From IMG/VR virus record IMGVR_UViG_3300026484_000600: a DNA stretch of 64,000 nucleotides. The stretch is one strand, 5' to 3'. The notes under the pieces were generated by a model. That model was not told the DNA's origin. It searched no databases and was given only the letters and a program-made list of their open reading frames with translations. Positions 2,498-54,727 of the stretch are shown one piece after another. Both the position numbers and the translations under genes were made by a program. Positions within the stretch are counted from its first letter, which is position 1, and the number at the start of each line of letters is the position of its first letter. The stretch comes from a virus. Taxonomy: Duplodnaviria; Heunggongvirae; Uroviricota; Caudoviricetes.

Positions 2498-2522
2498 AGA
2501 GGAATTATACCTCTCTAATTTT
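2496..2522. terminator. Bidirectional intrinsic terminator hairpin between convergent genes
   Basis: agagagg-aattata-cctctct, a perfect 7-bp GC-containing stem flanked by A/T runs. It sits exactly between the + gene ending at 2497 and the - gene ending at 2521. Confidence 0.6.
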
Positions 2523-4334: not shown

Positions 4335-4715
4335 GGGTCCGAATTGGGATCGATGTTGCTAAAAGAAATTTAAATTGCAAGTAGAGTGATGACTTAATCA
4401 TCAAAAAAGCTTAAATGCAAACACAAAACTTTATATTCCACAGACTGCGAGAGTAGCTGCTTAATCCTCCCTTTGGGAGCCTGGAATCACTCGGTTTATT
4501 AGTTGTCTATTTACTGATAAATAATGGGTGTATAATAAAAATAGATAAGCTGAAGTTAAACTTGATACCTTTAGACGAAAATTATATCGAGTACCTTTAA
4601 TACAGATTTGTTTGGTTATCTAAGTATTAAAGTATTAAGAATCAAACTAAACTTGTAAATGAGATTTAGATGGAAGTAGTGGCAGACCCGAGTTCAATTC
4701 TCGGCGGATCCACCA
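4335..4715 (+). ncRNA. ssrA: tmRNA (SsrA), one-piece, about 381 nt
   Basis: The 5' GGGUCCG pairs with the 3' CGGAUCC-A-CCA, giving a 7-bp acceptor stem with G3:U70 and a CCA end at 4713-4715. A T-arm lies at 4688-4704 (ccgag-UUCAAUU-cucgg). A GGAUCGAUG 5' element resembles the E. coli GGAUUCGACG. The internal tag ORF starts at resume codon GCA (4417) and runs to UAA (4462-4464), encoding ANTKLYIPQTARVAA, followed by a CUCCC...GGGAG hairpin. SmpB is encoded at 23006-23455. Confidence 0.8.
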
Positions 4716-8917: not shown

Positions 8918-9185
8918 TATTAGTACGGTTTAATGTTTTGTGCGCAAGTTTTATAAACTCAAATGACACATCATCAGGATGAATTTTAAAACCATATTCA
9001 TCTTCAAATTTTTTAGTCCATAAACTATAATGATTTCTTAATTCCATACCTAAACTAAAATGGTATATTATTAAATCGTTTTCATCGGTATTAATAAAAT
9101 CATTTAGTGGTTTAAAATCTTTAAGGTCATCTGATAGTAGAAGTTTCACAACCTCTACTAAATCTTCTGGAGGATTAGAAATCAT
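8907..9185 (-). CDS. Hypothetical protein
   Basis: 92-aa ORF, operon context. Confidence 0.4.
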   Translation of the reverse strand: MISNPPEDLVEVVKLLLSDDLKDFKPLNDFINTDENDLIIYHFSLGMELRNHYSLWTKKFEDEYGFKIHPDDVSFEFIKLAHKTLNRTNNAI

Positions 9186-10324
9186 TTATATTTCCTAGTA
9201 ATAATTTCCACTTTGTCGTCTGAAAATTGAGTAAGTTTTTCAGTCCAAGTAATAATTCTAGAGCGTTCTACAAATTCATTTTGAGCATAATCCATAGTTC
9301 CTTCAGAAATAGGTTTCAGGTATTTTTCTTTTTTAACTAAAATACCGTATTTAAATTTATCTTCGACTTCTTCCCAATCTTTACCAGTAGTTTCTTTACA
9401 GTATTTGACCTGTTCAAGACCATTTTTTCCTAATAGAGATTTATGAGAACAGTATGTTTGAGCATACATTGATCTAGAGTTCTTCTCAGAATCTCGAATT
9501 CGCCACATGATACTATTAAATGCTTCTTCTTTGGATGATACACCATAAACTCTGGCATCAAACCATGCATTGCCTACTTTTTCTTCCATAGTTTTAATGT
9601 ATTTCATAATATCTGGATTATTGGTATCAATTTCTCTATTTTCTAATTTTTGATCATATTCTTCAAACTTTTTTTCTAAAAAATTAGAAAAATGCTTATT
9701 AAACTGCATAGTAGTATAGGCCGCTATTAAAGAAGTTAATTTCTGAATTCTACCACCAAAAATCTGTTCATTTGTTGTCTCTACTTTTTTAATAATATAT
9801 TTTGATAGTACTTCTAATGATTTAGTTTCTGTTTGTATGTTTCTATTTTGCCAACAACATCGATCTATAATTTCGTCATTAGTATCAGAAACTATCCAAA
9901 AGTTGATACTAAAATATTTATCCTCCGTATCTTCATAAATTATATCTAATGAGCCAAGTAAGTTATACTCTTTATCATAAACTTTATATGATACTTCTTC
10001 TTCATCATTAAGAAAAAATAAATCTTTAACTTCAATAGGTATTAATCTTTCTTTGAATTGAGGAGCAAATACTAATGAAATTTCATCTGATTGTGTGTAA
10101 CCTGTTACTGCTCCAAATTTTTCAACGAGATTTTTGGTTGTTTCTTCCATTGTATTAGATAATATGTCATCAAATGGTTTTTTCATACCTTTTGTGTATT
10201 TACTAAATTTATGACCATCGATTCTACAAATGATAAAATCTCTTGGATCAATTACTGATTCAAATTCTTTTTCATAACCTTTAAGCCTAGTTCCTAAAGA
10301 TTCCTCTCTCATACTTTTTTTCAC
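9182..10324 (-). CDS. Thg1-like protein (tRNA-His guanylyltransferase family, 3'-5' polymerase) with a C-terminal extension
   Basis: The N-terminal 250 aa track Thg1: FIICRIDGHKFSKYTK (the RIDGxxFxxF motif), KPFDD, GYTQSDEISLVF (Thg1 GESDEYSF). 380 aa total, about 130 aa longer than Thg1. Confidence 0.7.
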   Translation of the reverse strand: MKKSMREESLGTRLKGYEKEFESVIDPRDFIICRIDGHKFSKYTKGMKKPFDDILSNTMEETTKNLVEKFGAVTGYTQSDEISLVFAPQFKERLIPIEVKDLFFLNDEEEVSYKVYDKEYNLLGSLDIIYEDTEDKYFSINFWIVSDTNDEIIDRCCWQNRNIQTETKSLEVLSKYIIKKVETTNEQIFGGRIQKLTSLIAAYTTMQFNKHFSNFLEKKFEEYDQKLENREIDTNNPDIMKYIKTMEEKVGNAWFDARVYGVSSKEEAFNSIMWRIRDSEKNSRSMYAQTYCSHKSLLGKNGLEQVKYCKETTGKDWEEVEDKFKYGILVKKEKYLKPISEGTMDYAQNEFVERSRIITWTEKLTQFSDDKVEIITRKYK

Positions 10325-15195: not shown

Positions 15196-17886
15196 TTATA
15201 ATCTTGGGTCGACACTTTCTTCTTTTTCATTTTCAAATAATAGATTGGCTATAATTTGTATTTGTTCTTTACTACCCATAGGAGCTTTAAGCATTTCTTC
15301 TCCTAATTTATACTCTGATATAGAAAGTCTTAATTTTTTAGAAATATTTTTTTGATTTAATAATCTATTAAATTTAATAGGGAATTTATAATCGTATCCA
15401 TAAATAATAGAAAGATATTCTTCATTTCTCACTTTTAAATATGGTGCAATCCAAGACTCTAATAATTTCACTTCGGGTTTTATTACGCAACCCTCCATAT
15501 TTTGATTTCGCACCAAATTATCATACCATTTTTCAGCTTTAATCAAATAATTTTTATCATCAAAATCAACAATATGTATATTATCTGAATTTAATAATTT
15601 AAAGTGTTTACTAGGAGTTAAATCCAAATTAATTATATTATTGTTTGATATTGCTTTCAATAATCTAAAACCTTTAAAATCAGTATTTGTATCTTCTCCA
15701 TAAAGGGTTATTTGTTTATTAAAAATTTTCCAAGCTTTTTTGTGGTCACTTAAAGGTATAAATCTATCAATTTCAAATTTTAAATCTTTATAAGAGTGAT
15801 ACTTGTGTCCATATTTTTTAACCAACTCTTTTTTAGCTAAAATATTCTTATCTTTTAAAAATTCTGATTTGTTAAATTCATCCTTTAAACTTATAAAAGC
15901 CTTATCAAATCCATTATCAAACAGAAAGTCAATTTCTGTTTGAATAGCTATATCCGCAGTCTTAAAATGGGTATCAATCAAACCTTTTCCTAAAAGAGCC
16001 CATGGTAATAATTCGCCATCTATAATTATCTCATCAGCATTATACATATCAAAAATATGCTTGTATTCTACTAATTTAGATGAGAATAATTCGGTTAAAT
16101 CTTCTCTTATTTTATATCCATTTCTACTTGTAGCATAACATTTTTTAATATTATCTTTAAAGAGATATAGTTGTGCTCTGGAACCCATATATTTAGGTTG
16201 TAGCACTACACTATCTACTTTATCCTTAAAATAATTGAGACCCATTTCTAAAGATTCTAGTGAATTATTTTCGATATTTTTATTTGTAGGGGAAATAGTA
16301 CCTCCTATATAACCTATACCATTTTTTACTATGTAATCTAATCTTCTTTGGTTATATGGATTTAAATCTTCAATAGATACTTCTTTCATAGCTTTACCTA
16401 TATCTTCAAACAGATTATTTCCAAAGTCGTTTCTTGCACTCTTAGGAGATAATGATTTTACACTTTGAATAAATGCTTTGCCATAACCTATACTATATCC
16501 AGTTAATTTTCCACCATATACACAACCTGTATCAATACAAACCTTATTTTTAAAAGATCTAACAGATGACTGACCCATATGACCGAATATATGAACCGGA
16601 TGGTTATTAATTGCTTCTTCTTTCAAATATGATGTTAATTCATCATTAGTCTTATCTTTGTTTTTACTTCTACTAGCACATTTATATTGGTGTTTTAATG
16701 AAATTCGATCCATCTTTTCAAGATATTTAACTTCACATGGTGCATGAGTAACTATAAAGCCTCTTTTATTTAATCCTATAAATTTAACCCATCCTTTCAT
16801 ATTATGAAAAATATCTAAAAACATAGATTTTAGCTCTTCATTTTTCTCTAGTAAAATTGCTGTATTATAGTATCTTTTTTTCTGATCTAATCGTTCTGGA
16901 GTAATTTCTAAATCTTTGTGATTTGTTATCCATTTCCAAACCATCTCTTCATGATTGCCCAATATTAATTGAAATCGATCTTGAAATTTTATCATATTTT
17001 TGTGTATGAATTTTATAGTTTCAGTTAAATCTTCTTCTGATGATTTATCTATTAAATCACCTGCAAAAATTAGTCCTATATTTTTTGTTTTAACAGTATC
17101 TATAATTTCATTGTCTTTAATTATAAAACCATATTTTTCAAGTAATTGTTTTAATTCTTGAATACATCCATGAACATCACCAATAGTAATCCAATCATAA
17201 GTACTATTTACTATTCTGTCAGTATATTTTTTCCAATCCCATACATCTACACTATAAACAGGCTTTAACATTGTAGGTGTTAAATCATATCGATTTTCCT
17301 GTTCCACTTCCAAAAGAAAATCTTTATTTTTAATTTTATGAATATTTTTATATATCCCTTTTTTTAATGTTTTTAATGTCTCCGTTTTTAATCTTTTTAT
17401 ATGTTTAGAAATAATTTTCCCATTGGTACTTGGACGTTGATATAGGCTTTCAGAAAAATTCTTTTGGTATTCATCAATATTTTTATAATCGAAAACTATA
17501 ATATCTACATTATAATTATTATCTTTTGCTATATCTAACACGTCGTTTCTAAATTTTTCGCTTAATCCGGTTGTATCTAAAATAACAAATTCTGCATTGA
17601 TTGGATAACTGGTAACAGCTCTTAATTTTGTAAATAGTATTTCGAATGCTTGTGTTGAACTCTCAGTCATAATTTCATCTATTTTACCATAGTTATAACC
17701 CAAAATATCTTTTCTAATATTATCGGAACTAATATATTGTATATTTGTCTTTAAATTATTATTAACATTGCCTTTATATTTTTGTAATGAAGGTATTAGA
17801 ATTTCATTAGCAAACGTCGTTTTACCAGAACCACTAGGTCCGACAAGCATTATTATGGTATGTACTTGGGTTTTAATTTTATTCAT
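15196..17886 (-). CDS. pnkp: Bacterial-type polynucleotide kinase-phosphatase Pnkp (kinase + metallophosphoesterase + ligase domains)
   Basis: N-terminal P-loop kinase (VGPSGSGKTTFAN). Central calcineurin-like phosphatase motifs (GDVHG, GDLIDKS, GNHE). C-terminal about 450 aa with a KYMGSR lysine motif, consistent with the Pnkp ligase domain. 896 aa. Confidence 0.7.
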   Translation of the reverse strand: MNKIKTQVHTIIMLVGPSGSGKTTFANEILIPSLQKYKGNVNNNLKTNIQYISSDNIRKDILGYNYGKIDEIMTESSTQAFEILFTKLRAVTSYPINAEFVILDTTGLSEKFRNDVLDIAKDNNYNVDIIVFDYKNIDEYQKNFSESLYQRPSTNGKIISKHIKRLKTETLKTLKKGIYKNIHKIKNKDFLLEVEQENRYDLTPTMLKPVYSVDVWDWKKYTDRIVNSTYDWITIGDVHGCIQELKQLLEKYGFIIKDNEIIDTVKTKNIGLIFAGDLIDKSSEEDLTETIKFIHKNMIKFQDRFQLILGNHEEMVWKWITNHKDLEITPERLDQKKRYYNTAILLEKNEELKSMFLDIFHNMKGWVKFIGLNKRGFIVTHAPCEVKYLEKMDRISLKHQYKCASRSKNKDKTNDELTSYLKEEAINNHPVHIFGHMGQSSVRSFKNKVCIDTGCVYGGKLTGYSIGYGKAFIQSVKSLSPKSARNDFGNNLFEDIGKAMKEVSIEDLNPYNQRRLDYIVKNGIGYIGGTISPTNKNIENNSLESLEMGLNYFKDKVDSVVLQPKYMGSRAQLYLFKDNIKKCYATSRNGYKIREDLTELFSSKLVEYKHIFDMYNADEIIIDGELLPWALLGKGLIDTHFKTADIAIQTEIDFLFDNGFDKAFISLKDEFNKSEFLKDKNILAKKELVKKYGHKYHSYKDLKFEIDRFIPLSDHKKAWKIFNKQITLYGEDTNTDFKGFRLLKAISNNNIINLDLTPSKHFKLLNSDNIHIVDFDDKNYLIKAEKWYDNLVRNQNMEGCVIKPEVKLLESWIAPYLKVRNEEYLSIIYGYDYKFPIKFNRLLNQKNISKKLRLSISEYKLGEEMLKAPMGSKEQIQIIANLLFENEKEESVDPRL

Positions 17887-18795: not shown

Positions 18796-19673
18796 TCTGG
18801 AAATCTCCTAATAATTCTTTCCCAAACATCTTCAGGAATCTCTGATTGAAAATCATTTTTTAATGCGAATTTAATATTCTTTTCAGTCATCCATAAAAGA
18901 TCTACATCTTCTTTTTCAAAGCGCTCATATAAGAATGGACTAGCCCAAACTATAATTCGATCATCTTTTATTAAATATCCATTATTTGCAGCTTCTATAT
19001 ATTCTAAATATTCAAAAATTATATCTTCACGATCTATTCCTTTTATTTCAAGAATATTAAAAGAGTTTTTAAAATGTCCTAAAAGTTTTTCTTTTCCATC
19101 ATATTGTATCTTATCTTCAACATAGAAAATACTTTGATGGAACCCTTTACCATAGGTATCCATAACATCATAATTCATTTCGAGGGGTATATTATTGTAA
19201 AAAATATCAGTAATTACAATGTCTCCAGTACCGATATAATCTGTATCTTTTGCCTCTATTACTAATAAATCTTTATTAAAATCGTCGGTATTTTTTAAAA
19301 TTTCTGTTTCAAAAAAAATACCTTTTTCTATTGATACTGATGAAATATACCAACCATCAGATAAAAAATTATCATCATTAATATTAAGGGTTAAATCACT
19401 AATATTAATAGTATCATATTTTGAATATTCGTATTCATTAACATTAATAGAAATACTACCATCAATAGCACAACTGGAAATATGTTCTATATCATCAAAA
19501 TCATAATATTGTCTTTCCCATCCACTACTACTGAATAATGTATCAAAATGGCCAATAATTTCATTGTAATCAAAACGTCTAAGAAGTTCTTTTATATTGT
19601 TGATATGGAGCTTATTGAGCTTACCACAGCAATATTCTCCACCATATCCACCAAATGTTAATACCATTTTCAT
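18783..19673 (-). CDS. Hypothetical protein
   Basis: 296-aa ORF between hen1 and pnkp. No motif recognised. Confidence 0.45.
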   Translation of the reverse strand: MKMVLTFGGYGGEYCCGKLNKLHINNIKELLRRFDYNEIIGHFDTLFSSSGWERQYYDFDDIEHISSCAIDGSISINVNEYEYSKYDTINISDLTLNINDDNFLSDGWYISSVSIEKGIFFETEILKNTDDFNKDLLVIEAKDTDYIGTGDIVITDIFYNNIPLEMNYDVMDTYGKGFHQSIFYVEDKIQYDGKEKLLGHFKNSFNILEIKGIDREDIIFEYLEYIEAANNGYLIKDDRIIVWASPFLYERFEKEDVDLLWMTEKNIKFALKNDFQSEIPEDVWERIIRRFPEWLI

Positions 19674-20923
19674 ACCCTTTTAATTATACAACCAATACTT
19701 GTAGATATACCATTGATATTATCGCCTATTTCTATAAATTCAAAGGATAGGTTATCATTATTAAAATTAGACATAAAACTTTTAAATTCATCAAATGTAG
19801 GTTCCCAATCATGATCATCATGTCGCATTTCTCCACCTAATTCGTAAAATACGTTAAAGTCTTTATTTGGTACTGTAATGATAAACGTATCAAAATTAAT
19901 AGATGTTAGCACTAATTCTATTAATCTTTTTGATTCAACTTTTGGCATATGTTCGATAACTTCGGTTAGTATTACATCTACTAACTCATTATCGTAATCT
20001 TTTATAAAATCTTCTAGACTATTAAAGAGATTAATATTTGTAATTTCTTTTTTTGAAGCTTTTATCTTGACTGACTCTAATAGATTAGGATTAATATCAA
20101 TGGCGTTATAAAAATATTTTTCTATTTTTTTAGAAAAATCTATTGCATAAAATCCTTCTCCACACCCAATATCAATAATCGATTTATTAAATGATAATAA
20201 ACGCTCTATTCTATCTTTTCGTTGCATAGCCGTATTACCATAAGCCATATTGATATTATATCTTTTTGATTCTTCAAGTAATTGTTTATATTTTTTAAAT
20301 TGATTTTTACTTTTAATAAGATTTCTACTTACTAAATAACGTATAAAGAATGGTGCATCTAATCGATTCATAGCATTTAGGTATTTTTCAATATTTGAAT
20401 TATCTAAATGTACATAGTCGTTACTTGATAATGCAATAAAAATCATCATAAGATTAATATAATTTAATAACATGAACCAACTATTTTCAGTTGTCACCTT
20501 AATAGTATAGTTTTTCCCTACTTGTTCAGTAATTTCAATTTCAAAATCAGGGAAATATTTCTTAAAATCCATTAACTGTTTTATTCTTTTAATTTCGAGT
20601 AAATTAATATAAAAATATTTCGGGTTTTTTATATCTAATTCTGATTCTTCTCTAACAGTACTTGAAAAAAATTCACTTATTGCATTGATAATAAACATGG
20701 GCGAGTTGTATTTAGAAATATTTAGATAATCAAATTCTTGTGATCCAAAGGATACATCATTATCAGCATCCTTAAAATAGATATTAAAGTCGGTACCATT
20801 ATGAGAGTACCAGGTAAATGCAGTACCTTTACGTATACTTCTTATTTGCATAGATGAATTTGGATTTTTTTTAATAATGTATCCAAAATTTGGATCATCA
20901 GAATGTAGCTGTAAAATAGCCAT
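19670..20923 (-). CDS. hen1: Hen1-like RNA 3'-terminal 2'-O-methyltransferase (C-terminal Rossmann MTase)
   Basis: SAM-binding motif I IIDIGCGEGFYAIDF in the C-terminal half of a 417-aa protein. Bacterial Hen1 has the same architecture and partners with Pnkp, which lies 1.8 kb downstream in the same orientation. Confidence 0.55.
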   Translation of the reverse strand: MAILQLHSDDPNFGYIIKKNPNSSMQIRSIRKGTAFTWYSHNGTDFNIYFKDADNDVSFGSQEFDYLNISKYNSPMFIINAISEFFSSTVREESELDIKNPKYFYINLLEIKRIKQLMDFKKYFPDFEIEITEQVGKNYTIKVTTENSWFMLLNYINLMMIFIALSSNDYVHLDNSNIEKYLNAMNRLDAPFFIRYLVSRNLIKSKNQFKKYKQLLEESKRYNINMAYGNTAMQRKDRIERLLSFNKSIIDIGCGEGFYAIDFSKKIEKYFYNAIDINPNLLESVKIKASKKEITNINLFNSLEDFIKDYDNELVDVILTEVIEHMPKVESKRLIELVLTSINFDTFIITVPNKDFNVFYELGGEMRHDDHDWEPTFDEFKSFMSNFNNDNLSFEFIEIGDNINGISTSIGCIIKRV

Positions 20924-23005: not shown

Positions 23006-23455
23006 TTAGAATTTTTTTAATGTTCTTTCCATATCTCGCTTGATATCACGCTCTTTAATAGTTTGTTTTTTATTATATGTTTTTTTGCCCTTAGCTAATG
23101 CCAACTGTACTTTTATTTTTTTTGTACCTTCTCGTTGATAAATTGATAAAATAATTAAAGTCAGTCCCTGTTCTTTTAATTTGCTTTTGAGTTTTAAAAT
23201 CTCTTTCTTATGCATTAATAATTTTCTATCTTGCACTTCATCAAATATTGCATAGGATGGTATGTATGTTGGATTTGAAATATGAGCTTGAGTTAAAAAT
23301 AACTCATTATTTTTCATTTTGACGTAGCTTTCTTTAAGAGAAATCGTACTATCTCTTACAGCTTTTACTTCACCACCCGACAGTACAATCCCTGCTTCAA
23401 ATGTTTCTATGATTTCATAATTAAATCTAGCTTTTTTATTTTGAGCATAAGTCAT
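23006..23455 (-). CDS. smpB: SsrA-binding protein SmpB
   Basis: NKKARFNYEIIETFEAGIVLSGGEVKAVR matches E. coli SmpB [29 protein letters not shown]. The C-terminal LALAKGKKTYNKKQTIKERD matches VAKGKKQHDKRSDIKERE. 149 aa. Confidence 0.85.
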   Translation of the reverse strand: MTYAQNKKARFNYEIIETFEAGIVLSGGEVKAVRDSTISLKESYVKMKNNELFLTQAHISNPTYIPSYAIFDEVQDRKLLMHKKEILKLKSKLKEQGLTLIILSIYQREGTKKIKVQLALAKGKKTYNKKQTIKERDIKRDMERTLKKF

Positions 23456-23655: not shown

Positions 23656-23945
23656 TAATCTAATTCCACCGAGAAATAATTTAATAGATATACCATATAT
23701 TCAGCTTCAAATTCATATTTATCATCGGAATGAATTAATTGATATAGCTTCTTAAATGGCAATTCATTTTTATTTGTCTTTATTTTATGTAAATCCTTAA
23801 ATTTATCTCTGTGCGTTAATTGAAATAAACTAAAAATTTTATTTGTCAAGAATGCTTGTTCTTCATATGATAAAATTCTATTTTTATAGATTATTTGTGG
23901 AAAATCATCTATGGATTTATCATAGCCATTTGTCCATAACTTCAT
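23655..23945 (-). CDS. Hypothetical protein
   Basis: 96-aa ORF. Confidence 0.4.
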   Translation of the reverse strand: MKLWTNGYDKSIDDFPQIIYKNRILSYEEQAFLTNKIFSLFQLTHRDKFKDLHKIKTNKNELPFKKLYQLIHSDDKYEFEAEYMVYLLNYFSVELD

Positions 23946-24490
23946 AATTCACCTTTTATAATGTCTTTATATTTTTTAATTAACTTACTATCTAATTTCA
24001 CTCGTATTTTAGTTTCGCCACCTAGACACTTACCTGCACCAGTCGATAAATTTAATAAGCCATTTCTATTTTCAAAAGCAGCTTCAACAGCACCCAATTG
24101 ATAATCTCTTAATATTACAGGATTACCATCAAATTCATAGTCTGAGAATATATCGTCTTTTATACCATCTTCAAAAAAATCATTTAATGGTAAAAAATGT
24201 TCCATTACTTCACTACTCATAGTAACTTTCTTTTTTTGTACTTCTGTTAAATATTCTACAACTTCTGAGAATAAACCCATTGGGAATGATCCATCGGCCT
24301 GTACTAATTTAACTTGAACTCCTTTGATTCCCATAAGCCTAAACCTAGGCTGAAATTTATAACCCGGTGGTAAGAATGCAAATTTTTGTTGGACATGATA
24401 TAACATACTAGACGAAATTTTATTTAATACAAATGTTGCTGAATCTCTTTTTGTGATATGGATTGGAATATTTTTCTTTTTTTTAGCCAT
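23942..24490 (-). CDS. uvsW: UvsW-like SF2 helicase N-terminal fragment (N-extein ending in Walker A GAGK) fused to a 28-aa split-intein N-fragment
   Basis: GYKFQPRFR matches T4 UvsW GYRFNPRFR. LRDYQ...GLLNLSTGAGK matches UvsW HWYQ...ILNLPTSAGKS. The ORF then continues CLGGETKIRVKL... (intein block A, Cys1) for 28 aa and stops. Confidence 0.75.
   Translation of the reverse strand: MAKKKKNIPIHITKRDSATFVLNKISSSMLYHVQQKFAFLPPGYKFQPRFRLMGIKGVQVKLVQADGSFPMGLFSEVVEYLTEVQKKKVTMSSEVMEHFLPLNDFFEDGIKDDIFSDYEFDGNPVILRDYQLGAVEAAFENRNGLLNLSTGAGKCLGGETKIRVKLDSKLIKKYKDIIKGEL
23945..24028 (-). mobile_element. Short IntN (block A only) of an atypically split intein inserted in the helicase P-loop
   Basis: CLGGETKIRVKLDSKLIKKYKDIIKGEL immediately after GAGK. 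The partner IntC is at 41995-42414. Confidence 0.65.
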
Positions 24491-26113: not shown

Positions 26114-26161
26114 TTTAAGCCTTCATTTGATTATAATAATATTTTACATTTTATTTAAAAA

Positions 26162-32489: not shown

Positions 32490-34667
32490 TTAAATATTAT
32501 TTTTTATGAATTTTTTAAGATTATCTAATGTTAAGGGTTTTGAAAAATAATAACCTTGATAAAAATCACAACCTAATCTATCAAGAATTTCTTTTTGTTT
32601 TGAATTTTCAATTCCTTCCGCTATAATAATAGTGTTGAAAATTTTACTCATTTTAATAATTACTTCAGCCATACTTTTAGAGATATTATCATGTACAATA
32701 TCATCAACAAATGCTTTATCAATCTTTATTTCATCAATAGTTAAATTTTTAACAGATGATAATGATGAGTATCCTGTTCCGAAATCATCAATAGATATTT
32801 TCACTCCTAATTGATGTAACCCATCTATTATTTGTTCCATATGAGTTAAATCCAAAATAAATAGATTTTCGGTTACTTCTAATGTAATATTATGTGGGTT
32901 AATATTAAATTGATTCATTTTATTTTTAATTTTTTGGACAAAACCATCTTCCATAAATTGTTTGATTGAAATATTGATTGAAATATTAAAATCCTTTGGA
33001 ACTATTTTTTTAAATTTATTAATATCATTAAATACATAATCTAAAATATAATCACCCAAAATAATTATATTTTCATTCTTTTCAGCAATTTTAATAAATG
33101 TTTCAGGACTTATTTGACCTAATTTTGAATTGTTCCATCGAACTAATGCTTCTACACCCACTATTTTATTTTTAGTATTTAGTTGTGGTTGATACACCAT
33201 GAATATCTCTTTTAAAATAATACCTTCCAATAATTTATTTTCTATTAAATGTTCTTCTTTAAAGGTTTCTTCTATATTTTTATCATAGAATACAATAGTA
33301 TTTTGTTTTTCTTTTGCTTTATATAAAGCTAAATCAGCTTTATATTTTACACTATGAAGATCTTCAAATCCCTCACATTGTGCAATACCAATACTCATAG
33401 TAGTTTTATGTTCATATTTGAATTTATCATTAGTTATATTTAATAAACTTTTAGCAAAACTTATCACCTTTTCTTTGTTCATTTCTCTAGTAATAATTAT
33501 AAATTCATCTCCACTAAAACGTATCAGCAAATCATCAGAAGAAATATTTTTTTTAAGTTCTGTTGCTATGGAAATCAAGAAATTATCACCGTAATTGTGT
33601 CCAAAGTTATCATTTATAAATTTAAAATTATCTAAATCTAAAAACAACATACTATAATGTTTATAATTGACTATTTTTTTATTTAGGTAATATCTATTTC
33701 CAACGTGTGTTAATGGATCATGAATAGAAATATATTCTAATTCATTTTTTCGTTCATTATTAATTTTATTAATAATGAACATCATTATAATAAAACTTAT
33801 ATTAAAAGCAAACCAAATAGATACTGCATTTATTAACCAATCATTTTTTAAAGAATCTATAATTTTTGAAGGGAACCCTATAACGAGCCATAGATCATAT
33901 CTTTCAATAAATTTTACACCGACCTTATATTTTGTATTATTTAATGATGTAGTGGTTAATGATATTTGATTTGTTTTTTTAAATAAATTATGTACATCGA
34001 TTTTTATAATAGAATCTATTTTAAAATCATTAATATTTGAATATTGAATTCTAGAGGAATTATTTTTAATTAATAAAATTATAGAATCATTGTGTATTTT
34101 ATTTGTAAATAAATTAGAAAATGACTTATTTATATTAATATCTACTGCAAGTACACCATACACTTTTGAATTTTTCCTAATACTTTTTCTTATTGGGATT
34201 ATTAGTTGGTTTGTTGGTCTAAATAAATATGAACGTCCTAAAATTGATGACTTGCATTTTAACGTTTTAAGAAATGACTCTTTAGTTTTTGGATTGGAGA
34301 TAAAATTAGGTATCTTTTTTACATCAACATTCGACGAATTTATTAATATGTCTCCATCGGGCGATATAAAACCATACCCTACTGCATCAGGTTCCAATTC
34401 TAACGCCATATTCAAATATTTTTGCTTATTGGGATAGGTTAAAATATTATTTCCTAACATTGTAAGTATGTTATTATATTTGTTAAATACATCTTCGGAT
34501 GCAATAGACAAAATACTTAGTTCGTGAAGAATCTTATTATCAATTTCATCCATAATATCTTTATTATTTGATTTATAACTAAAATAAAATATAATAGAAG
34601 TAGATATAATAACAAAAGCGATAACTAATAAACTTCCTAATTTTTCTAAAAAATATTTAATATTCAT
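32490..34667 (-). CDS. Membrane sensor protein with GGDEF (degenerate SGDEF) and EAL domains (c-di-GMP phosphodiesterase, possibly also cyclase)
   Basis: N-terminal TM, a periplasmic-like region and a second TM. The GGDEF region carries LFLDLDNFKFINDNFGH and RFSGDEFIII. The EAL domain carries YQPQ, EALVRW, DDFGTGYSSL and KIDKAFV signatures. Confidence 0.75.
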   Translation of the reverse strand: MNIKYFLEKLGSLLVIAFVIISTSIIFYFSYKSNNKDIMDEIDNKILHELSILSIASEDVFNKYNNILTMLGNNILTYPNKQKYLNMALELEPDAVGYGFISPDGDILINSSNVDVKKIPNFISNPKTKESFLKTLKCKSSILGRSYLFRPTNQLIIPIRKSIRKNSKVYGVLAVDININKSFSNLFTNKIHNDSIILLIKNNSSRIQYSNINDFKIDSIIKIDVHNLFKKTNQISLTTTSLNNTKYKVGVKFIERYDLWLVIGFPSKIIDSLKNDWLINAVSIWFAFNISFIIMMFIINKINNERKNELEYISIHDPLTHVGNRYYLNKKIVNYKHYSMLFLDLDNFKFINDNFGHNYGDNFLISIATELKKNISSDDLLIRFSGDEFIIITREMNKEKVISFAKSLLNITNDKFKYEHKTTMSIGIAQCEGFEDLHSVKYKADLALYKAKEKQNTIVFYDKNIEETFKEEHLIENKLLEGIILKEIFMVYQPQLNTKNKIVGVEALVRWNNSKLGQISPETFIKIAEKNENIIILGDYILDYVFNDINKFKKIVPKDFNISINISIKQFMEDGFVQKIKNKMNQFNINPHNITLEVTENLFILDLTHMEQIIDGLHQLGVKISIDDFGTGYSSLSSVKNLTIDEIKIDKAFVDDIVHDNISKSMAEVIIKMSKIFNTIIIAEGIENSKQKEILDRLGCDFYQGYYFSKPLTLDNLKKFIKNNI

Positions 34668-34704: not shown

Positions 34705-35223
34705 TTAAATAAATAATTGGGGGTTTACAAATGAAAAATTTTTAGTATTTAGTTGCATAATTTTATCGTCATATTCAAATAAAAATTCTTGTGGGTTTTT
34801 AATATAATACCAAATCCCCAACCAATAAATATCATTTAAAATTTGTGTTTGGAATTGTTCAATATAGGTACTACCATATTTATTAGATTGTCGTAATTTA
34901 CTAAAATATATAGCAGCTTTAAATTCTATATAATTTTTTGGGCGAATCTGATTTATCATTTCAACTGCAGACATTACTTCTTCATCAAAGTCTTCTGAAG
35001 TTAAGTGATTATTTTTTATAAGTGTCCATAAAATAAATCCAAGATCATTTTTTAGTGATTTAATATTTGATTCTTTAATGTCAAACCCAAATTTCATGGG
35101 CATTTTGAATTCTTGACCTATTAAATATTCAAATCCTTGTATATTTTTTAATTGATTTAACTCATTTTTGGTTTTTTTCAGTTCATGTTCTAATAGCTGA
35201 TATTCAAATTTACTCACACTCAT
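34705..35223 (-). CDS. Hypothetical protein
   Basis: 172-aa ORF overlapping the SAH gene by 14 nt. Confidence 0.4.
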   Translation of the reverse strand: MSVSKFEYQLLEHELKKTKNELNQLKNIQGFEYLIGQEFKMPMKFGFDIKESNIKSLKNDLGFILWTLIKNNHLTSEDFDEEVMSAVEMINQIRPKNYIEFKAAIYFSKLRQSNKYGSTYIEQFQTQILNDIYWLGIWYYIKNPQEFLFEYDDKIMQLNTKNFSFVNPQLFI

Positions 35224-35734
35224 TTTTTTGAAACTCCATACATGCGTTTTCTATCTCATTTATAATTTTTAATTGTCGTTCGGTTATATCGGGGCGATTT
35301 TTTTTAAGAAAATCCATCATATTTAATGTTTTTTTAACATATGATATCCCTGGTTTATCTAAAATATTTGAAAGTCGATCTATTAATTTTATTATAAAAG
35401 CATATTTAGACATTTTAATCATTTTTTGTTTTAAGTATTCATTCTTACCCAATTGTTTGATTGCTATAGGATCTGATGTTAATTCCACAACTATTGATGC
35501 TACTAAGGGACCAAATTCTCGTTCTAATTCAGAATATGTACACTCCGTATCTTCTAAAACATCATGTAGTAAACCAGCACATTGTAATTCATCTAACTTT
35601 TTAGAACCATTTTTATATTTAGCAATAAGTTGAGATACGATAATTGGGTGTGTTACGTAGGGTAATCCAGAACCTCTCCGTTCTTGACCTTTGTGCTTTT
35701 CAGCTGCAAATTGTATGGCTTTAATAACTAACAT
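35210..35734 (-). CDS. Small alarmone hydrolase (RelA/SpoT-type HD-domain (p)ppGpp hydrolase)
   Basis: AIQFAAEKHKGQERRGSGLPYVTHPIIVSQLI...AGLLHDVLEDT aligns with the SpoT hydrolase-domain core (AHEGQTRSSGEPYITHP...AALLHDVIEDT). 174 aa, hydrolase-only. Confidence 0.7.
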   Translation of the reverse strand: MLVIKAIQFAAEKHKGQERRGSGLPYVTHPIIVSQLIAKYKNGSKKLDELQCAGLLHDVLEDTECTYSELEREFGPLVASIVVELTSDPIAIKQLGKNEYLKQKMIKMSKYAFIIKLIDRLSNILDKPGISYVKKTLNMMDFLKKNRPDITERQLKIINEIENACMEFQKNECE

Positions 35735-36129: not shown

Positions 36130-37866
36130 ATGAAAATAAAAGATATATTGGATATATTTTATCCTAATGGACTTGATAGACCCTATAACAAGAATGTATT
36201 GAGAAAACAACCAGAATTAAAACAAATATTAATTAAGAAAACTGATTTTTTAAAAAAGGAAGCGACTATTTCAGAACGTCTTTATGTTTTAAGACATAAT
36301 ATTTGTGTATCGCCAATATGTCTTGAGTGTGGATCACCAGTAAAATTCAAAAGTCCTAAAGAAGGTTATGCAAAATTCTGTTCTAAGAAATGTACTTCAA
36401 AATCATCAATAACTAAAATAAAAAGAAATAATACGTTTAACGAAAAATATGGTGGTATTGGTTTTGGGTCAAAAGAAATTTTAGATAAAGTATATGAAAC
36501 CAATTTAGATAGATTTGGGACATCTATTCCACAACAAACAAATATAATAAAAGATAAAATTAAAAATTCCTGGAAGGATTTAGATAAAGAAATTATTTTA
36601 AAAAAGAGAAGAGAAACTAACTTAGAAAAATACGGGACAGAATATCATCAACAGAATAGTGACCAAAAAGAAAAATTACTTAAATCAATGATTAAAAATA
36701 ATGGTGGTATTGGTCTTTCTTCAGATAAAATCAAATCTAAAGTTAAAGCGACAATGCAAAAAAAATATGGTGTAGACAATCCCATGCAGTCGGATAAAAT
36801 CAAATCTAAAGTTAAAGCGACAATGCAAAAAAAATATGGTGTGGATAATTACAAAGAATTAGATAATGATGCATGGAATAATTTTAAAAAATATTTTGAT
36901 CCAGAAACATTTCAATTAGACTTATCTTTGCAAGAAATGGAAGAAAAATATCAAGTGCGATATTACACCATATCTAATTTTTTGCAGAAGTATGGTTTTG
37001 AATTTTCAAAAATATCATCATATGAACAATCATTACGTAATATATTACCTGATGATTTTGAATTTAATAACCGAACAATTTTAGATGGTAGAGAACTAGA
37101 TTTTTATTCAAAAAGTCGAAATTTAGCTATTGAATTTAACGGACTTTTATATCATTCTGAAAAATATGGAAAAGACAAGAATTATCATAAATCAAAGACG
37201 GATGGATGTATATCTAAGGATATATCATTGATACACATATTTGAAAATGAATGGTTGTTTAAACGTAATATCGTAGAATCTATAATTAATACCAAGTTGA
37301 ATAATTTTTCTCATAGAATTTATGCTAGAAAATGTCAAATTAAAGAACTCGATACCAAGATTAAAAATGATTTTTTAGAAGAAAATCATATTCAAGGAAA
37401 AGATAGCTCCAAAGTAAAATTAGGATTATTTTATGAGGGTGATTTAGTACAAGTTATGACATTTGGTCATTCTCGATTTAATAAAAAATATCAATATGAA
37501 ATGCATAGATCTTGTTCAAGAATTGGTTATCAAATAATCGGCGGATTAAATAAATTGTGGTCATACTTCATTAAAAATTATAAACCTAAATCTGTTGTTA
37601 CGTATGCTGATAGAAGATATTTTGATGGGAGGAGTTATTTAAAATTAGGGTTTAATTTTTCTCATACCTCACCATCTAATTTTTGGATATTTGGTCCTGG
37701 TATAAAAGGTGTTGATTCAAGATTAAATTGGCAAAAACACAAGCAGAAAGATAAATTAAAAAAGTTTGACCCAACTTTAACAGCATGGGAAAATATGATT
37801 GATAATGGTTATAATAGAATATGGGATAGTGGGAATAATGTATATATTTGGAAAGCGGAAGAGTAA
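36130..37866 (+). CDS. Putative free-standing homing-endonuclease-like protein (Zn-ribbon, tandem KYG repeats, C-terminal Vsr/DUF559-like PD-(D/E)XK domain)
   Basis: N-terminal CLECGSPVKF...FCSKKC. Repeated KYGG/KYGV modules, including an exact 23-aa duplication. A C-terminal RELDFYSKSRNLAIEFNGLLYHSE motif (the DF...AIEFNG..H endonuclease signature). Convergent with and abutting the intein-bearing gp41 gene. Confidence 0.45.
   Translation: MKIKDILDIFYPNGLDRPYNKNVLRKQPELKQILIKKTDFLKKEATISERLYVLRHNICVSPICLECGSPVKFKSPKEGYAKFCSKKCTSKSSITKIKRNNTFNEKYGGIGFGSKEILDKVYETNLDRFGTSIPQQTNIIKDKIKNSWKDLDKEIILKKRRETNLEKYGTEYHQQNSDQKEKLLKSMIKNNGGIGLSSDKIKSKVKATMQKKYGVDNPMQSDKIKSKVKATMQKKYGVDNYKELDNDAWNNFKKYFDPETFQLDLSLQEMEEKYQVRYYTISNFLQKYGFEFSKISSYEQSLRNILPDDFEFNNRTILDGRELDFYSKSRNLAIEFNGLLYHSEKYGKDKNYHKSKTDGCISKDISLIHIFENEWLFKRNIVESIINTKLNNFSHRIYARKCQIKELDTKIKNDFLEENHIQGKDSSKVKLGLFYEGDLVQVMTFGHSRFNKKYQYEMHRSCSRIGYQIIGGLNKLWSYFIKNYKPKSVVTYADRRYFDGRSYLKLGFNFSHTSPSNFWIFGPGIKGVDSRLNWQKHKQKDKLKKFDPTLTAWENMIDNGYNRIWDSGNNVYIWKAEE
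36721..36858. repeat. 69-nt direct tandem repeat (2 copies) inside the homing-endonuclease-like gene
   Basis: gataaaatcaaatctaaagttaaagcgacaatgcaaaaaaaatatggtgt occurs twice with a 69-nt period. It encodes SDKIKSKVKATMQKKYGVDN twice. Confidence 0.75.
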
Positions 37867-37877
37867 TCTACTCTTCC
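37857..37877. terminator. Perfect 9-bp hairpin spanning both stop codons of convergent genes
   Basis: ggaagagta-atc-tactcttcc. The + gene stop TAA and the - gene stop (CTA on +) both lie inside the stem. Confidence 0.4.
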
Positions 37878-39289
37878 TTCGATGTAATTAATTTATCGCC
37901 AACTTTAAGTGAAGCCATAATACAGTCTTCCACTATTTTTCCATCATCTAAGACTTTTGGAAAAATATGTCTTCCAGACACTTTGATAGTTTTTCCACTT
38001 TTTAAAGTGATTTCATATACTTCTTGTTCTTCTGGTTCAGTAACGGCTGTTACAGTTCTAAATTCATTATTAGTTCCAAGAACTTTATCACCTACATTGA
38101 TTTCTTCAATATTTATTTTACCGCTTGGGGTTGTTACTTTTTCTCCAAATGCTAGACATCGGTTGTATTGGTCTGCCGTCCATACAATAGTGTCAAAGAG
38201 TGTTGCTACAGCTCTTAATTCTTCAGATACATATTTATCTTTTTCAAACATTCCCTGCCAATTTTTCCCATTTGGTGTCATTAGACCCGCATAATCTAGA
38301 ATAATAATAGGGACAGTATTATATTTTTGTAGATAATTTCTTACAAATAATTCCAATTTCATTGCACTTAGTGTATTGGGTTGATAAAAATGAACGGTAA
38401 ATCTACCATAGCCTTTATTATCACATTTCTTTAGATGATTATAAATTTCCATTTCAGATTTTTCAATTTGGTGTGTTGGTATTTTAGTCGAATGTGTTAT
38501 ATATCTTTTCATGATTTTTTCTTCTTTTAGTTCCAACGAAATATATATAACATCTCTTTTCATTTGGATATAATTCCATGCTAAATTTATTAATCCTATT
38601 GATTTACCACCGCCTGATTTAGCTAGTAAATAATTTAAACTAGGAATTGTTACACCTCCATCTAATTTATCATCTACGTTCCACCATCCAGTAGGAATTG
38701 TAGCTTCAGTTGATGTCAGCATTTTAAATAAATCTCGAAAATTATCTTTATCAGTATCTATGGTTACACCTAGTTTTGTATCGATATCAACATTTACTGC
38801 TTCTTTAATTTTCTTTTCAATAGTTCCATAATCTTCTTCTTCTAAAAGCTCGATACTATCTTCGATTGCACCTTTCATACTCATATTTTTTATAAATGCA
38901 TTTAGATAATCTTCAAGATATTCTGTTGGCCAAGGTTTATTTATATCTAACCAGTCATCATGCACATTATCTAAGTTTAACTCTAATAATATAGCATCTT
39001 CTGGAGGAATACTTTTATATAAATCATAATAATCGATCATGAAATCAACTATTAATTTATTGATTTTTGACTCAAAAAAATCTTTATCTAAAAATGTTAT
39101 ACCCTTAACAAATAACTCTGGATTATTAATAAGTTGAGCAAGTAAAACCCGTTCTTTATCTTCAATATCTAATAGTTTACCTTCCGAACGTTCAACATTC
39201 TTTTTTTTCTTTTTCTTTTTCGATGATGATTCTGCTTCTAATTCGGCTAAAGCGTCTTCATATTCTGTATCATCTATTTGCTCATCCAT
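37868..39289 (-). CDS. gp41/DnaB-family replicative helicase whose ORF terminates in a 96-aa split-intein N-fragment
   Basis: DnaB motifs IPTGWWNVDDKLDGG, Walker A LAKSGGGKSIGL and the arginine-finger region DQYNR. Then CLAFGEKVTTPSGKINIEEINVGDKV (intein block A, Cys1) and a SGRHIFP block-B-like segment, followed by a stop. No C-extein follows. Confidence 0.75.
   Translation of the reverse strand: MDEQIDDTEYEDALAELEAESSSKKKKKKKNVERSEGKLLDIEDKERVLLAQLINNPELFVKGITFLDKDFFESKINKLIVDFMIDYYDLYKSIPPEDAILLELNLDNVHDDWLDINKPWPTEYLEDYLNAFIKNMSMKGAIEDSIELLEEEDYGTIEKKIKEAVNVDIDTKLGVTIDTDKDNFRDLFKMLTSTEATIPTGWWNVDDKLDGGVTIPSLNYLLAKSGGGKSIGLINLAWNYIQMKRDVIYISLELKEEKIMKRYITHSTKIPTHQIEKSEMEIYNHLKKCDNKGYGRFTVHFYQPNTLSAMKLELFVRNYLQKYNTVPIIILDYAGLMTPNGKNWQGMFEKDKYVSEELRAVATLFDTIVWTADQYNRCLAFGEKVTTPSGKINIEEINVGDKVLGTNNEFRTVTAVTEPEEQEVYEITLKSGKTIKVSGRHIFPKVLDDGKIVEDCIMASLKVGDKLITSKEE
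37871..38158 (-). mobile_element. Split-intein IntN (blocks A and B) at the end of the gp41/DnaB gene
   Basis: 96 aa starting with Cys directly after the helicase QYNR motif. The gene ends without blocks F/G or a C-extein. Confidence 0.6.
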
Positions 39290-39345
39290 TACAAAACCTT
39301 ATTTTTTTATATCAATTTTACAATTTTTATTACATAAATAAAAGT

Positions 39346-41835: not shown

Positions 41836-41994
41836 TTTGAATTCCTTTTAATGGTGTATTTCATATTTATTATACCTAATTATAATTTAAATATAAATTA
41901 AGAAAAAATGTATAATTAATATATTATGTGATAACCAATCGTCTTTAGTGGTTGGGTTTTCTCAGTTAGGTATATAACAATTTTAGGAAAGTAA

Positions 41995-42414
41995 ATGGAA
42001 GAAATAGAATTAACTTTTGAACAATTATTTAAAATAATATCATTAGAAGAAAATATTGCGTTTCGTAGAGATGAAGAATATTTTCAACAAACACCAATAC
42101 AGATTCAAAATGAATATGGTGAGTGGATTGATATAAAAGGTCTTATTGTAAAAGAAGATAATTTAATAAAATTAGAAATTAATGCGACAGAGTATATAAT
42201 AACTACTGACAATCATATTTTGATGCTTGATGACCACACCTTAAAAAAGGTCAATAAATTGTCTATAGGTGATAGATTATATAATATTGATGAAAATCAT
42301 ATGGCTGTAGTTACAAATATAGAGAATTTGTATGAACAGGGCTTATTATATGATGTTGAAGTTGATTCTGAAAATCATTTATATCAAATAGCAAATGGTA
42401 CCATTCATCACAAT
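41995..42414 (+). mobile_element. Long IntC of an atypically split intein
   Basis: 140 aa ending ...NGTIHHN|T. It complements the 28-aa IntN at 23945-24028. The reconstituted junction reads GAGK-T (Walker A). Confidence 0.65.
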
Positions 42415-43404
42415 ACGTTATTAACGTCGGCTATTGTTAAATATGCCAATAAACTAAATATGAAAACGATTGTTATTGTTCCATCATCATCATTATTAAA
42501 GCAAACTTATGATTATATAAAACAATTTGATATTCCAGTTGGTATGTTTGGTAGTGGTAAAAAAGATGATGAAGTTAATATTGTGGCTACCTGGCAAACG
42601 TTACAAAATAATAAACATTTTATTCGTGATTTTGAATGTGTTATATGGGATGAGTGTCATAATGCCAAAGCGTATGTAGCTCAACAAATTATGAATGAAG
42701 CAAAAAATTCATATCTTCGAATAGGTTTGACTGGTACCGTGCCGAAAGATCCATTAGATAAAGCTAATTTAACAGCTGGTTTTGGACCAGTAGTTTATGA
42801 TATAAAAGCTCATGAATTACAAAAGAGAAACATATTATCTTCAATAGATATTAATATTTTTGAACTAGTTTATCCTAAAGAATATTTGGGTTCATTTATT
42901 GATTGGCATGAAGAAACTGTTTTTTTACAAAGTAATGAAATGTTTCAAAAATTAATGAAAGCAATTGTTGACTCATTAGAGGGTAATACATTGATATTAA
43001 TGAAGAATATAGATCCAGCTGAGGATTTATCAGAATTTTTAGAGTGTGAATATATTAGCTCGAAATTATCCGTTAATAAAAGACAGGAAAAATTTAATGA
43101 ATTTGTTTATGGTGGTAATTTAATAACTGTTGGTACATATTCATTACTTAGTACTGGAATTGATATTGTTCATATTAATAATTTAATTCTTGCACCAACA
43201 CCTGGCAAAAGTTTTACTAAAGTTATACAATCGATTGGTAGGGGTCTTAGAAGAAAGGAGGGACAAAAAGAGCATGTTACTGTAATCGATATGACATCCA
43301 ATTTGAAATATGATAAAAAACATATAAAAGCTAGAAAAGATTTTTATAAAGAGGCTCAATATCCATTTGAAGTTGAAAAGATAGAATTAAAAAACTTTAA
43401 ATAA
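41995..43404 (+). CDS. uvsW: Split-intein C-fragment (about 140 aa, blocks B/F/G ending HHN) fused to the C-extein of the UvsW-like SF2 helicase
   Basis: The N-terminus carries TDNH (block B), LLYDVEVDSENHLYQIANG (block F) and IHHN (block G). After +1 Thr the sequence is TLLTSAIVKYANK...IVIVPSS (motif Ia), VIWDECHNA (motif II), LTGT (III), LLSTGIDIV (V) and QSIGRGLRR (VI). It aligns with T4 UvsW. Confidence 0.75.
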   Translation: MEEIELTFEQLFKIISLEENIAFRRDEEYFQQTPIQIQNEYGEWIDIKGLIVKEDNLIKLEINATEYIITTDNHILMLDDHTLKKVNKLSIGDRLYNIDENHMAVVTNIENLYEQGLLYDVEVDSENHLYQIANGTIHHNTLLTSAIVKYANKLNMKTIVIVPSSSLLKQTYDYIKQFDIPVGMFGSGKKDDEVNIVATWQTLQNNKHFIRDFECVIWDECHNAKAYVAQQIMNEAKNSYLRIGLTGTVPKDPLDKANLTAGFGPVVYDIKAHELQKRNILSSIDINIFELVYPKEYLGSFIDWHEETVFLQSNEMFQKLMKAIVDSLEGNTLILMKNIDPAEDLSEFLECEYISSKLSVNKRQEKFNEFVYGGNLITVGTYSLLSTGIDIVHINNLILAPTPGKSFTKVIQSIGRGLRRKEGQKEHVTVIDMTSNLKYDKKHIKARKDFYKEAQYPFEVEKIELKNFK

Positions 43405-54684: not shown

Positions 54685-54727
54685 TTTTACTCCTTGTGAT
54701 ATATTATAGTTATTTTACAATTTTTTT

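Follow-up and report, generated by a model that had tools for sequence, protein, structure and literature searches.

In cyanobacteria, the essential DNA enzyme DnaE (Ssp/Npu) is made from two genes that lie far apart on opposite strands, and protein trans-splicing joins the halves. Phage-like metagenomic DNA-metabolism genes, including a helicase, are broken by inteins in the fractured genes gp41-1, NrdJ-1 and IMPDH-1 (Dassa et al, 2009; PMC2677866). The atypically split class, represented by AceL-TerL, GOS-TerL, VidaL and PolB16, combines a short N-terminal intein fragment (IntN, ~15-37 aa) with a long C-terminal fragment (IntC) (PMC13014065). About five natural members of this class have been characterised (PMC11923092, 2025; PMC13014065); VidaL and PolB16 are split at position S1, and AceL-TerL and GOS-TerL at S2, after helix alpha1 (PMC13014065). 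Atypically split inteins are prized in protein engineering because an IntN of 15-30 residues can be made synthetically. Here we describe a UvsW-like helicase encoded in two pieces within 64,000 nucleotides (the whole stretch analysed, referred to as the window) of the IMG/VR virus record IMGVR_UViG_3300026484_000600, an uncultured large phage of 27% GC in which both pieces lie on one contig of 221,509 bp. The two helicase halves are very probably joined post-translationally, through trans-splicing, by a split intein with a short N and a long C fragment.

The preliminary description of this DNA placed the two halves 17.5 kb apart on opposite strands, with the break inside Walker A, and both statements hold. 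The N gene (23942-24490, minus strand, 182 aa) and the C gene (41995-43404, plus strand, 469 aa) are found exactly as given in the list of open reading frames (ORFs), are divergently transcribed and are separated by 17,505 bp carrying some twenty ordinary phage genes. Codons 1-154 of the N gene (24029..24490, minus) encode the N-extein, composed of the UvsW N-terminal domain, the motif Q region and the first part of Walker A; it ends in NLSTGAGK, reading RDYQLGAVEAAFENRNGLLNLSTGAGK directly before the IntN CLGGETKIRVKLDSKLIKKYKDIIKGEL (residues 155-182, 28 aa; 23945..24028, minus). In the DNA, the junction runs from AAG (Lys154, 24031-24029) to TGT (Cys155, 24028-24026), and Cys155, directly after GAGK, occupies the place of the intein position-1 nucleophile (Cys1). 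The IntN contains block A with Cys1, strand beta2 and a short helical tail, and is closed by a TGA stop (23942..23944, minus) that overlaps the ATG of a downstream 96-aa ORF (ATGA), which suggests translational coupling in an operon.

The C gene begins with an IntC of 140 aa (41995..42414, plus), which starts with MEEIELTFEQLFKII (a strand followed by helix alpha1) and contains block B (..ITTDNH.., His74 of the C ORF) as well as blocks F and G, LYDVEVDSENHLYQIANGTIHHN, with Asp120 and His128 in block F and His138-His139-Asn140 in block G. It is followed by a C-extein of 329 aa (42415..43401, plus), which opens with Thr141 and carries motifs Ia-VI as located by Pfam and by alignment to T4 UvsW. 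Thr141 is at once the +1 nucleophile and the Walker-A Thr (GAGK-T, where the hyphen marks the splice bond), and the C-extein continues with LLTSAIV.., LLTSAIVKYANKLNMKTIVIVPSSS.

Leaving out the 168 intein residues, the joined product is 483 aa long, instead of the ~510 aa first estimated. Of all PDB sequences, T4 UvsW (2oca) matches it best, the relationship being distant (phmmer E 6e-31); residues 27-463 align to residues 19-470 of 2oca, unbroken across the LNLSTGAGK-TLLTSAIVKY junction. The match covers the whole length including the N-terminal domain, whereas the T4 gene is single and intein-free. Pfam recognises UvsW_N (PF21241) on residues 24-85 of the N gene product above the cut-off (34.2 bits, 3.4e-8; cut-off 25.3), and ResIII (1.6e-12) and Helicase_C (9.5e-9) on the C-extein, which aligns to T4 UvsW up to residue 470. 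The assignment to UvsW therefore stands, the joined protein displaying the UvsW N-domain, the two-lobed core and motifs I-VI of a UvsW-type superfamily 2 (SF2) helicase. Moreover, the fused N and C products are colinear end to end with four contiguous UvsW-like proteins (P0086, P0087, P0089 and P0093; metagenomic, 640-788 aa), which carry an unbroken mini-intein at the same site (..TGAGK-C...HHN-T..); at the matching position, the intein-free UvsW of phage RaK2 reads ..ATGAGKTIICAAL.. This colinearity, together with the T4 UvsW alignment across the junction, makes the pairing of the N and C pieces far beyond chance. The term 'T4-like' initially applied to the phage is only loosely right; among 50,697 deposited phage genomes, megablast returned no DNA match to the region. 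The genomic context is suggestive of a UvsW-like role, by analogy, in branch migration or R-loop unwinding and in recombination-dependent replication: the N gene adjoins a PD-(D/E)XK nuclease gene, and in Campylobacter phage IBB_35 UvsW stands beside a RecB-like exonuclease (PMC3322345).

We then asked how far the split is kept in related phages, a check proposed at the outset. The N-piece search gave 72 clusters from independent metagenomes (124-218 aa, most of them 158-188), and all 72 N pieces read ..GxGK-CL(G)(G/P)(D)T(K)(L/I)(K)(V/I)(K/R)(L/I).. and then stop. The intein Cys is present in 72/72; in 71 clusters the IntN measures 14-32 aa (median 26), with C1, L2 and T6 conserved. Of the 66 relatives with a sufficiently long IntN, 65 have the tail residues Lys19-Tyr20; the most divergent relatives have an IntN of 14-16 aa without the tail. 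The C-piece search gave ~45 clusters, 462-485 aa in length and 46-94% identical to the query over its full extent. When 21 C pieces (45-94% identity) were aligned, His74, Asp120, Glu122, His128, Tyr130, Gly135, His138, His139, Asn140 and Thr141 were invariant, which bears out the blocks B, F and G and the HHN followed by T read earlier, while apart from these residues the intein part varies more than any other region of this alignment; the block B His is present in 53/53 rows of a further alignment (A5). The split, the catalytic residues and the synteny are thus retained in both sets of relatives.

N and C pieces occur on the same contigs. In the only close relative found in IMG/VR (224 kb, 94-96% identity), the halves are divergent and 15.5 kb apart; a 73% relative keeps both gene neighbourhoods; and on an 89-kb contig (45-55% identity) both pieces share one strand, the C piece coming first and the N piece 11.2 kb downstream of it, and the IntN measures 15 aa. 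In the three relatives examined, the N piece follows the PD-(D/E)XK nuclease gene and the C piece stands beside a PIN-PhoH gene, indicating from these shared neighbourhoods that the separation of the halves is old and that only their local orientation has changed. We also considered that the 17.5 kb between the halves could be one inserted mobile element; this was rejected, as conserved core genes (DnaB, ligase, PhoH) lie inside and the core-gene order is also colinear with a distant relative. Since the source is a metagenomic assembly, the split might be suspected to arise from assembly or gene calling, the real gene being contiguous. The same stop after the IntN and the same Met-start of the IntC are however present in independent JGI, ENA, NCBI and Logan assemblies, the genes flanking each half are conserved and the N gene stop overlaps the next start, so that the probability of such an artefact is negligible.

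Dispersal of the halves on opposite strands, together with the sub-threshold matches to curated intein profiles described below, could also be explained if the two genes were decaying remnants of a helicase gene destroyed by intein insertion and rearrangement, UvsW function having been lost. We estimated the ratio of non-synonymous to synonymous substitution rates (dN/dS) against the 94% relative, where dS is 0.5-0.7, and obtained 0.027 for the N-extein, 0.087 for the IntN, 0.119 for the IntC and 0.042 for the C-extein. Both intein fragments are under purifying selection and are not decaying. In addition, dozens of lineages, down to 45% identity, have unbroken reading frames and the full set of helicase motifs, and both genes have a ribosome-binding or promoter context. 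With dN/dS of 0.03-0.12 in all four segments at a dS of ~0.5-0.7, decay is a highly improbable account of this locus.

The proposed mechanism is as follows. Both transcription units would be expressed from similar promoters, yielding an N product made of the N-extein and the 28-residue IntN (Cys1, beta1, beta2 and a short basic helical tail) and a C product made of the 140-residue acidic IntC (the rest of the HINT fold), Thr+1 and the remaining helicase. The IntN would dock as the missing N-terminal strands of the IntC; an N-S acyl shift at Cys1 would be followed by trans-esterification to Thr+1, and cyclisation of Asn140 and an O-N shift would then excise the intein and release a 483-aa helicase with an intact GAGKT P-loop. 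Because the break separates the Lys of Walker A from its Thr, no activity is expected of the unspliced pair, and since the P-loop is interrupted before splicing, splicing should be a precondition for ATPase and helicase function.

Alternatively, the fragments could serve as a non-covalent heterodimerisation module holding together a two-chain helicase without splicing, for which the complementary charges of the fragments and their predicted co-folding could be invoked. Such a two-chain enzyme would nevertheless retain a 168-residue domain between the P-loop Lys and Thr, which is hard to reconcile with nucleotide binding, and it would leave the invariance of the chemistry residues (Cys1, block B His, block F Asp, penultimate His, Asn and Thr+1) in 21-72 relatives without a reason. 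Contiguous relatives with the same intein must moreover splice in cis to function. We therefore regard assembly without splicing as very unlikely and retain covalent joining of the halves by trans-splicing.

Several points weigh against trans-splicing. At this locus, association and splicing are predicted from sequence and a structural model. The Thr of block B (TxxH) is replaced by Ala in most of the 21 C-piece relatives; a block B Ala and a +1 Thr are both tolerated in known inteins, but slow splicing is possible. The promoter assignment given below rests on a short motif. Curated intein profiles stay below their cut-offs: PF14890 (cut-off 35.8) scores 28.1 for the C ORF and 17.9 when applied to the fused intein, TIGR01443 scores 13.4 (cut-off 15.6) and TIGR01445 scores 12 (cut-off 24.5). 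This formally brings into play the refuting condition set at the outset, a failure of the intein blocks in profile matching, although these sub-threshold matches point to the right family. The structural model is itself an artificial fusion rather than two chains, with coupling information for the IntN coming from only 13 contiguous sequences of its alignment, and the whole fused precursor of 651 aa, modelled from a 5-sequence alignment, is poorly predicted (AlphaFold predicted local distance difference test, pLDDT, of 56.6).

Because the curated profiles remained below cut-off, the fold was examined by other routes. The fused intein, flanked by six residues at either end, was modelled by AlphaFold2 from an alignment of 53 rows, which gave a pLDDT of 93.2 and a predicted template modelling score (pTM) of 0.88, the IntN part reaching a pLDDT of 96-97. 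Searched against the PDB with Foldseek, this model retrieved inteins or BIL domains for all of the top 50 matches, the best being VidaL (6vgv; E 9.4e-9, target TM-score 0.81). The alignment to VidaL suggested in the preliminary description gave a concordant result: hhalign of the family profile returned 97.1% probability (E 6e-11) and BLASTP aligned the full length at 24% identity (E 5e-6), the VidaL sequence being taken from a supplement and checked against 6vgv. Among solved structures, the best sequence match is the PolB16 intein, a weak one (E 0.01). The fused intein is thus predicted to adopt the HINT fold of a class 1 intein.

In the model, the IntN forms beta1, beta2 at residues 7-11 and, at residues 14-19, a short helix, with the chain break in the next loop, and the IntC starts with a strand (residues 3-7) followed by helix alpha1 (residues 8-19). 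The split therefore falls in the variable loop after beta2 and before alpha1, which is the S1 position of VidaL and PolB16; at this point, contiguous relatives have a variable linker of ~10-30 residues. In the VidaL alignment the split points coincide, except for the tail of about 11-12 residues of the window IntN, and relative to the S1 type this extra tail is conserved and 10-16 residues long. There is no homing-endonuclease domain: together the fragments make up 168 aa, as in a mini-intein, the type that the contiguous relatives have as well. Note that the two fragments are of opposite charge, the IntN being basic (mean +2.7; +4 in the window) and the IntC acidic (mean -14.5; -18 in the window, of which -6 in the first 35 residues). 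With two ORFs, an IntN of 28 aa and an IntC of 140 aa, and VidaL as the closest structure to the HINT model, the short-IntN/long-IntC topology proposed earlier is upheld, and the window intein is a genuine further member of the atypically split class, of S1 type with a conserved extra tail.

VidaL is the closest characterised relative, in a different host and at a different insertion point. Both inteins have Cys1, lack an endonuclease domain, sit in the P-loop of a phage recombination ATPase and are split at the same position, the IntC starting with MIEEKKVTVQELREL in VidaL (16-aa IntN) and with MEEIELTFEQLFKII in the window, but they share only 20-24% identity. The host of VidaL, seen via the contiguous relative P0324, is RecA/UvsX-like and is interrupted three residues earlier in Walker A (..ISG-..-SGKS); the VidaL IntN has no tail, whereas that of the window is 12 residues longer with a near-invariant Lys19-Tyr20, and the +1 residue is Ser in VidaL and Thr in the window. 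PolB16 OarG (8cpn; 15-aa IntN) belongs to the same S1 split class (PMC13014065), but unlike the window intein it is cysteine-less (Ser1), resides in a PolB-type DNA polymerase and is not inserted in a P-loop. AceL-TerL and GOS-TerL (IntN of 25 and 37 aa) share with the window the short IntN, the long IntC and an origin in metagenomic phage-like genes (PMC13014065), but they are split at S2 in a terminase, whereas in the window alpha1 belongs to the IntC and the host is a helicase. Cyanobacterial DnaE, in turn, resembles the window in its dispersed halves on opposite strands and differs in being bacterial, canonically split (IntN ~100-120 aa, IntC ~35 aa) and not inserted in a P-loop. A closer published relative may exist: the VidaL T4Lh inteins, which Thiel in 2014 and Neugebauer in 2017 are said to have described, reportedly are atypically split, in a T4-like helicase from Lake Vida metagenomes, and would be closer if that host is UvsW-like. 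As to layout, the halves of the fractured genes are adjacent, canonically split and have a free-standing endonuclease gene between them (PMC2677866), whereas the window has 17,505 bp of ordinary phage genes at this place and an atypical split.

We next considered how the two pieces are expressed. The N gene lies inside an overlapping run of minus-strand genes, in the order nuclease (assigned to PDDEXK_1), 202-aa ORF, N gene, 96-aa ORF, 67-aa ORF and SmpB, while the C gene stands alone on the plus strand after a 159-nt intergenic region, with the ribosome-binding site AGGAAAG. A generic sigma-70 scan around the C gene scored no better than shuffled sequences (45 vs 38.7). The motif TGTAWAAT, in contrast to its expectation of 24.1 +/- 4.9, occurs 37 times in the window; 18 of the 37 copies fall in the intergenic 8% of the window, and 13 copies are located 10-90 nt upstream of same-strand gene starts. 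One promoter-like copy with an extended -10, TGTATAAT (41909..41916, plus), is found 79 nt upstream of the ATG of the C gene, and another, TGTAAAAT (26141..26148, minus), 28 nt upstream of the PD-(D/E)XK nuclease gene; further copies are at 39315-39322 (minus) and 54712-54719 (minus). Ahead of the C gene, the 94% relative retains the motif and the 71-73% relatives have it as the variant TTGTAAAAT. TGTAWAAT is likely a -10-type promoter element of this phage group. Of the separate control first claimed for the two fragments, the separate transcription units are confirmed, but differential control is not supported: since the same promoter-like motif precedes both units, we infer that they are co-expressed. 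As a separate observation, a GC-containing hairpin, CCAATCGTCTTTAGTGGTTGG, followed by GTTTTCT is located at 41935-41955 (plus), between the promoter-like motif and the start of the C gene, and is absent from the aligned upstream region of the 94% relative.

Splicing could in addition act as a regulatory gate, through the timing at which the halves meet or through redox or other control of Cys1, as an add-on to trans-splicing and not in place of it. Separate transcription units 17.5 kb apart, retention of the split over a deep clade without reversion, and the presence of the same split intein family in other ATPases of related phages could be taken this way. However, the shared promoter-like motif suggests that both units belong to the same temporal class, an intein in a P-loop is hard to delete precisely, which explains its persistence as well, and the sequence indicates no sensor. 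We consider this added gating unlikely, though less so than the alternatives to splicing weighed above.

To place this intein in a wider family, a HMMER search with the 141-residue IntC was run against 1.84 billion representative proteins (50% identity clusters). It returned 132 clusters (P0193-P0322; also L024 3825-5009, minus), of which 103 start with the IntC at their own N-terminus and 13 are contiguous with GK-C upstream; nearly all end in ..LYQTxNGxIHHN, followed by T (81), S (16) or C (3). By Pfam, the exteins belong to AAA_5, ClpX/Cdc48-type AAA_2, ClpB D2, RecA, PhoH, ABC_tran, DnaB_C and T4-type terminase, and nearly all of their Pfam matches begin around profile position 12-35, immediately behind Walker A, while the RecA match begins at 65. 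The family is thus found at the Walker-A GK-[ST] bond in at least eight P-loop nucleoside triphosphatase (NTPase) families, mostly in split form, and in one relative the DnaB gene itself starts with the same IntC type. Searches of deposited phage genomes by tblastn with the IntC alone found nothing, and the intein family was not found in GTDB representative genomes. Matches over part of the IntC to RaK2-like jumbo phages in tblastn were set aside as spurious, the RaK2 uvsW being contiguous and intein-free.

These data could reflect a large and almost wholly uncatalogued intein lineage that homes to the Walker-A Lys-Ser/Thr bond in many P-loop NTPases (UvsW, DnaB, RecA, PhoH, ClpX/ClpB-type AAA+, AAA_5, ABC and TerL) of uncultured AT-rich large phages and that is predominantly atypically split, a tentative interpretation on which we would not yet rely. 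If it is correct, short-IntN splits would be the favoured state of a whole lineage rather than rare curiosities, which would imply either selection, for example by post-translational gating of several phage ATPases or by freedom to rearrange the halves, or a distinctive persistence without a homing endonuclease. The case was initially called notable; it is a real one, but it is less exceptional than suggested, as dozens of metagenomic phages have the same split and the intein family occurs widely. The class is small and technologically valuable, and the family-level pattern deserves attention. The locus itself adds a well-supported Cys1/Thr+1 example, with halves kept at separate loci through deep divergence, and the helicase would be a phage recombination enzyme whose ATP-binding loop, as predicted from the sequence and the model, exists only after protein trans-splicing. 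Its relatives add cognate IntN/IntC pairs (IntN 14-32 residues) and more than 100 related IntC-first proteins, a panel that can be used for finding fast, orthogonal or extein-tolerant variants. Because standard profiles miss the intein family, such split genes are likely annotated as a truncated hypothetical protein and a helicase.

Other relatives carry a second intein in UvsW, at motif II (WDEC-...-HNAKA). It is contiguous in P0025 and P0093, and elsewhere it is canonically split between two adjacent genes 17 nt apart (9009-9983 and 10001-10873 of L024, the 227,833-bp ENA contig k141_410798; P0077/P0045). Combined with a distant N piece, this motif II split would result in a three-piece UvsW needing two trans-splicing reactions. 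Among phages whose UvsW intein is contiguous, the adjacent RecA/UvsX-like gene encodes 518 aa on one contig (L019, 2112-3668) and 357 aa on another (L020, 211-1284); the longer copy may carry an intein too.

The phage of the window has a second, canonically split intein, as read from its DnaB-like replicative helicase ORF (37868-39289, minus), in which ..WTADQYNR is followed by a terminal canonical IntN of ~95 aa (~37871-38158, minus; CLAFGEKVTTPSGK...VSGRHIF...), recognised by TIGR01445 above its cut-off (26.1 vs 24.5). The window was searched for a C-terminal piece matching this helicase and for further IntC-first ORFs, and neither was found. A convergent ORF of 578 aa (36130-37866, plus; DUF7487 / PHROG 'homing endonuclease') abuts the DnaB-like ORF.

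The window, at 24-30% GC, contains many replication and RNA-repair genes. A transfer-messenger RNA (tmRNA) gene was identified by ARAGORN at 4335-4715 (plus), with the tag peptide ANTKLYIPQTARVAA, and the SmpB gene (23006-23455, minus; Pfam 9.5e-49) is part of the same gene run as the helicase N piece, an adjacency kept in the 73% relative (L015). RNA repair and quality-control genes are located on the minus strand at 2521-4020, 4870-6273, 9182-10324, 15196-17886 and 19670-20923; the proteins of this toolkit are a Ro60/TROVE protein, a T4 Rnl1-type RNA ligase, a Thg1-like guanylyltransferase, a Pnkp (kinase-phosphatase-ligase, 896 aa) and a Hen1 methyltransferase, which suggests countermeasures against host defences that cleave tRNA or other RNA. 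Finally, a 725-aa protein (32490-34667, minus) combines a sensor-like N-terminal region with GGDEF (1.4e-31) and EAL (1.5e-64) domains, and an HD_4-domain protein encoded nearby (35210-35734, minus) reads as (p)ppGpp-hydrolase-like; judged by their domains, both are putative phage-carried second-messenger enzymes.

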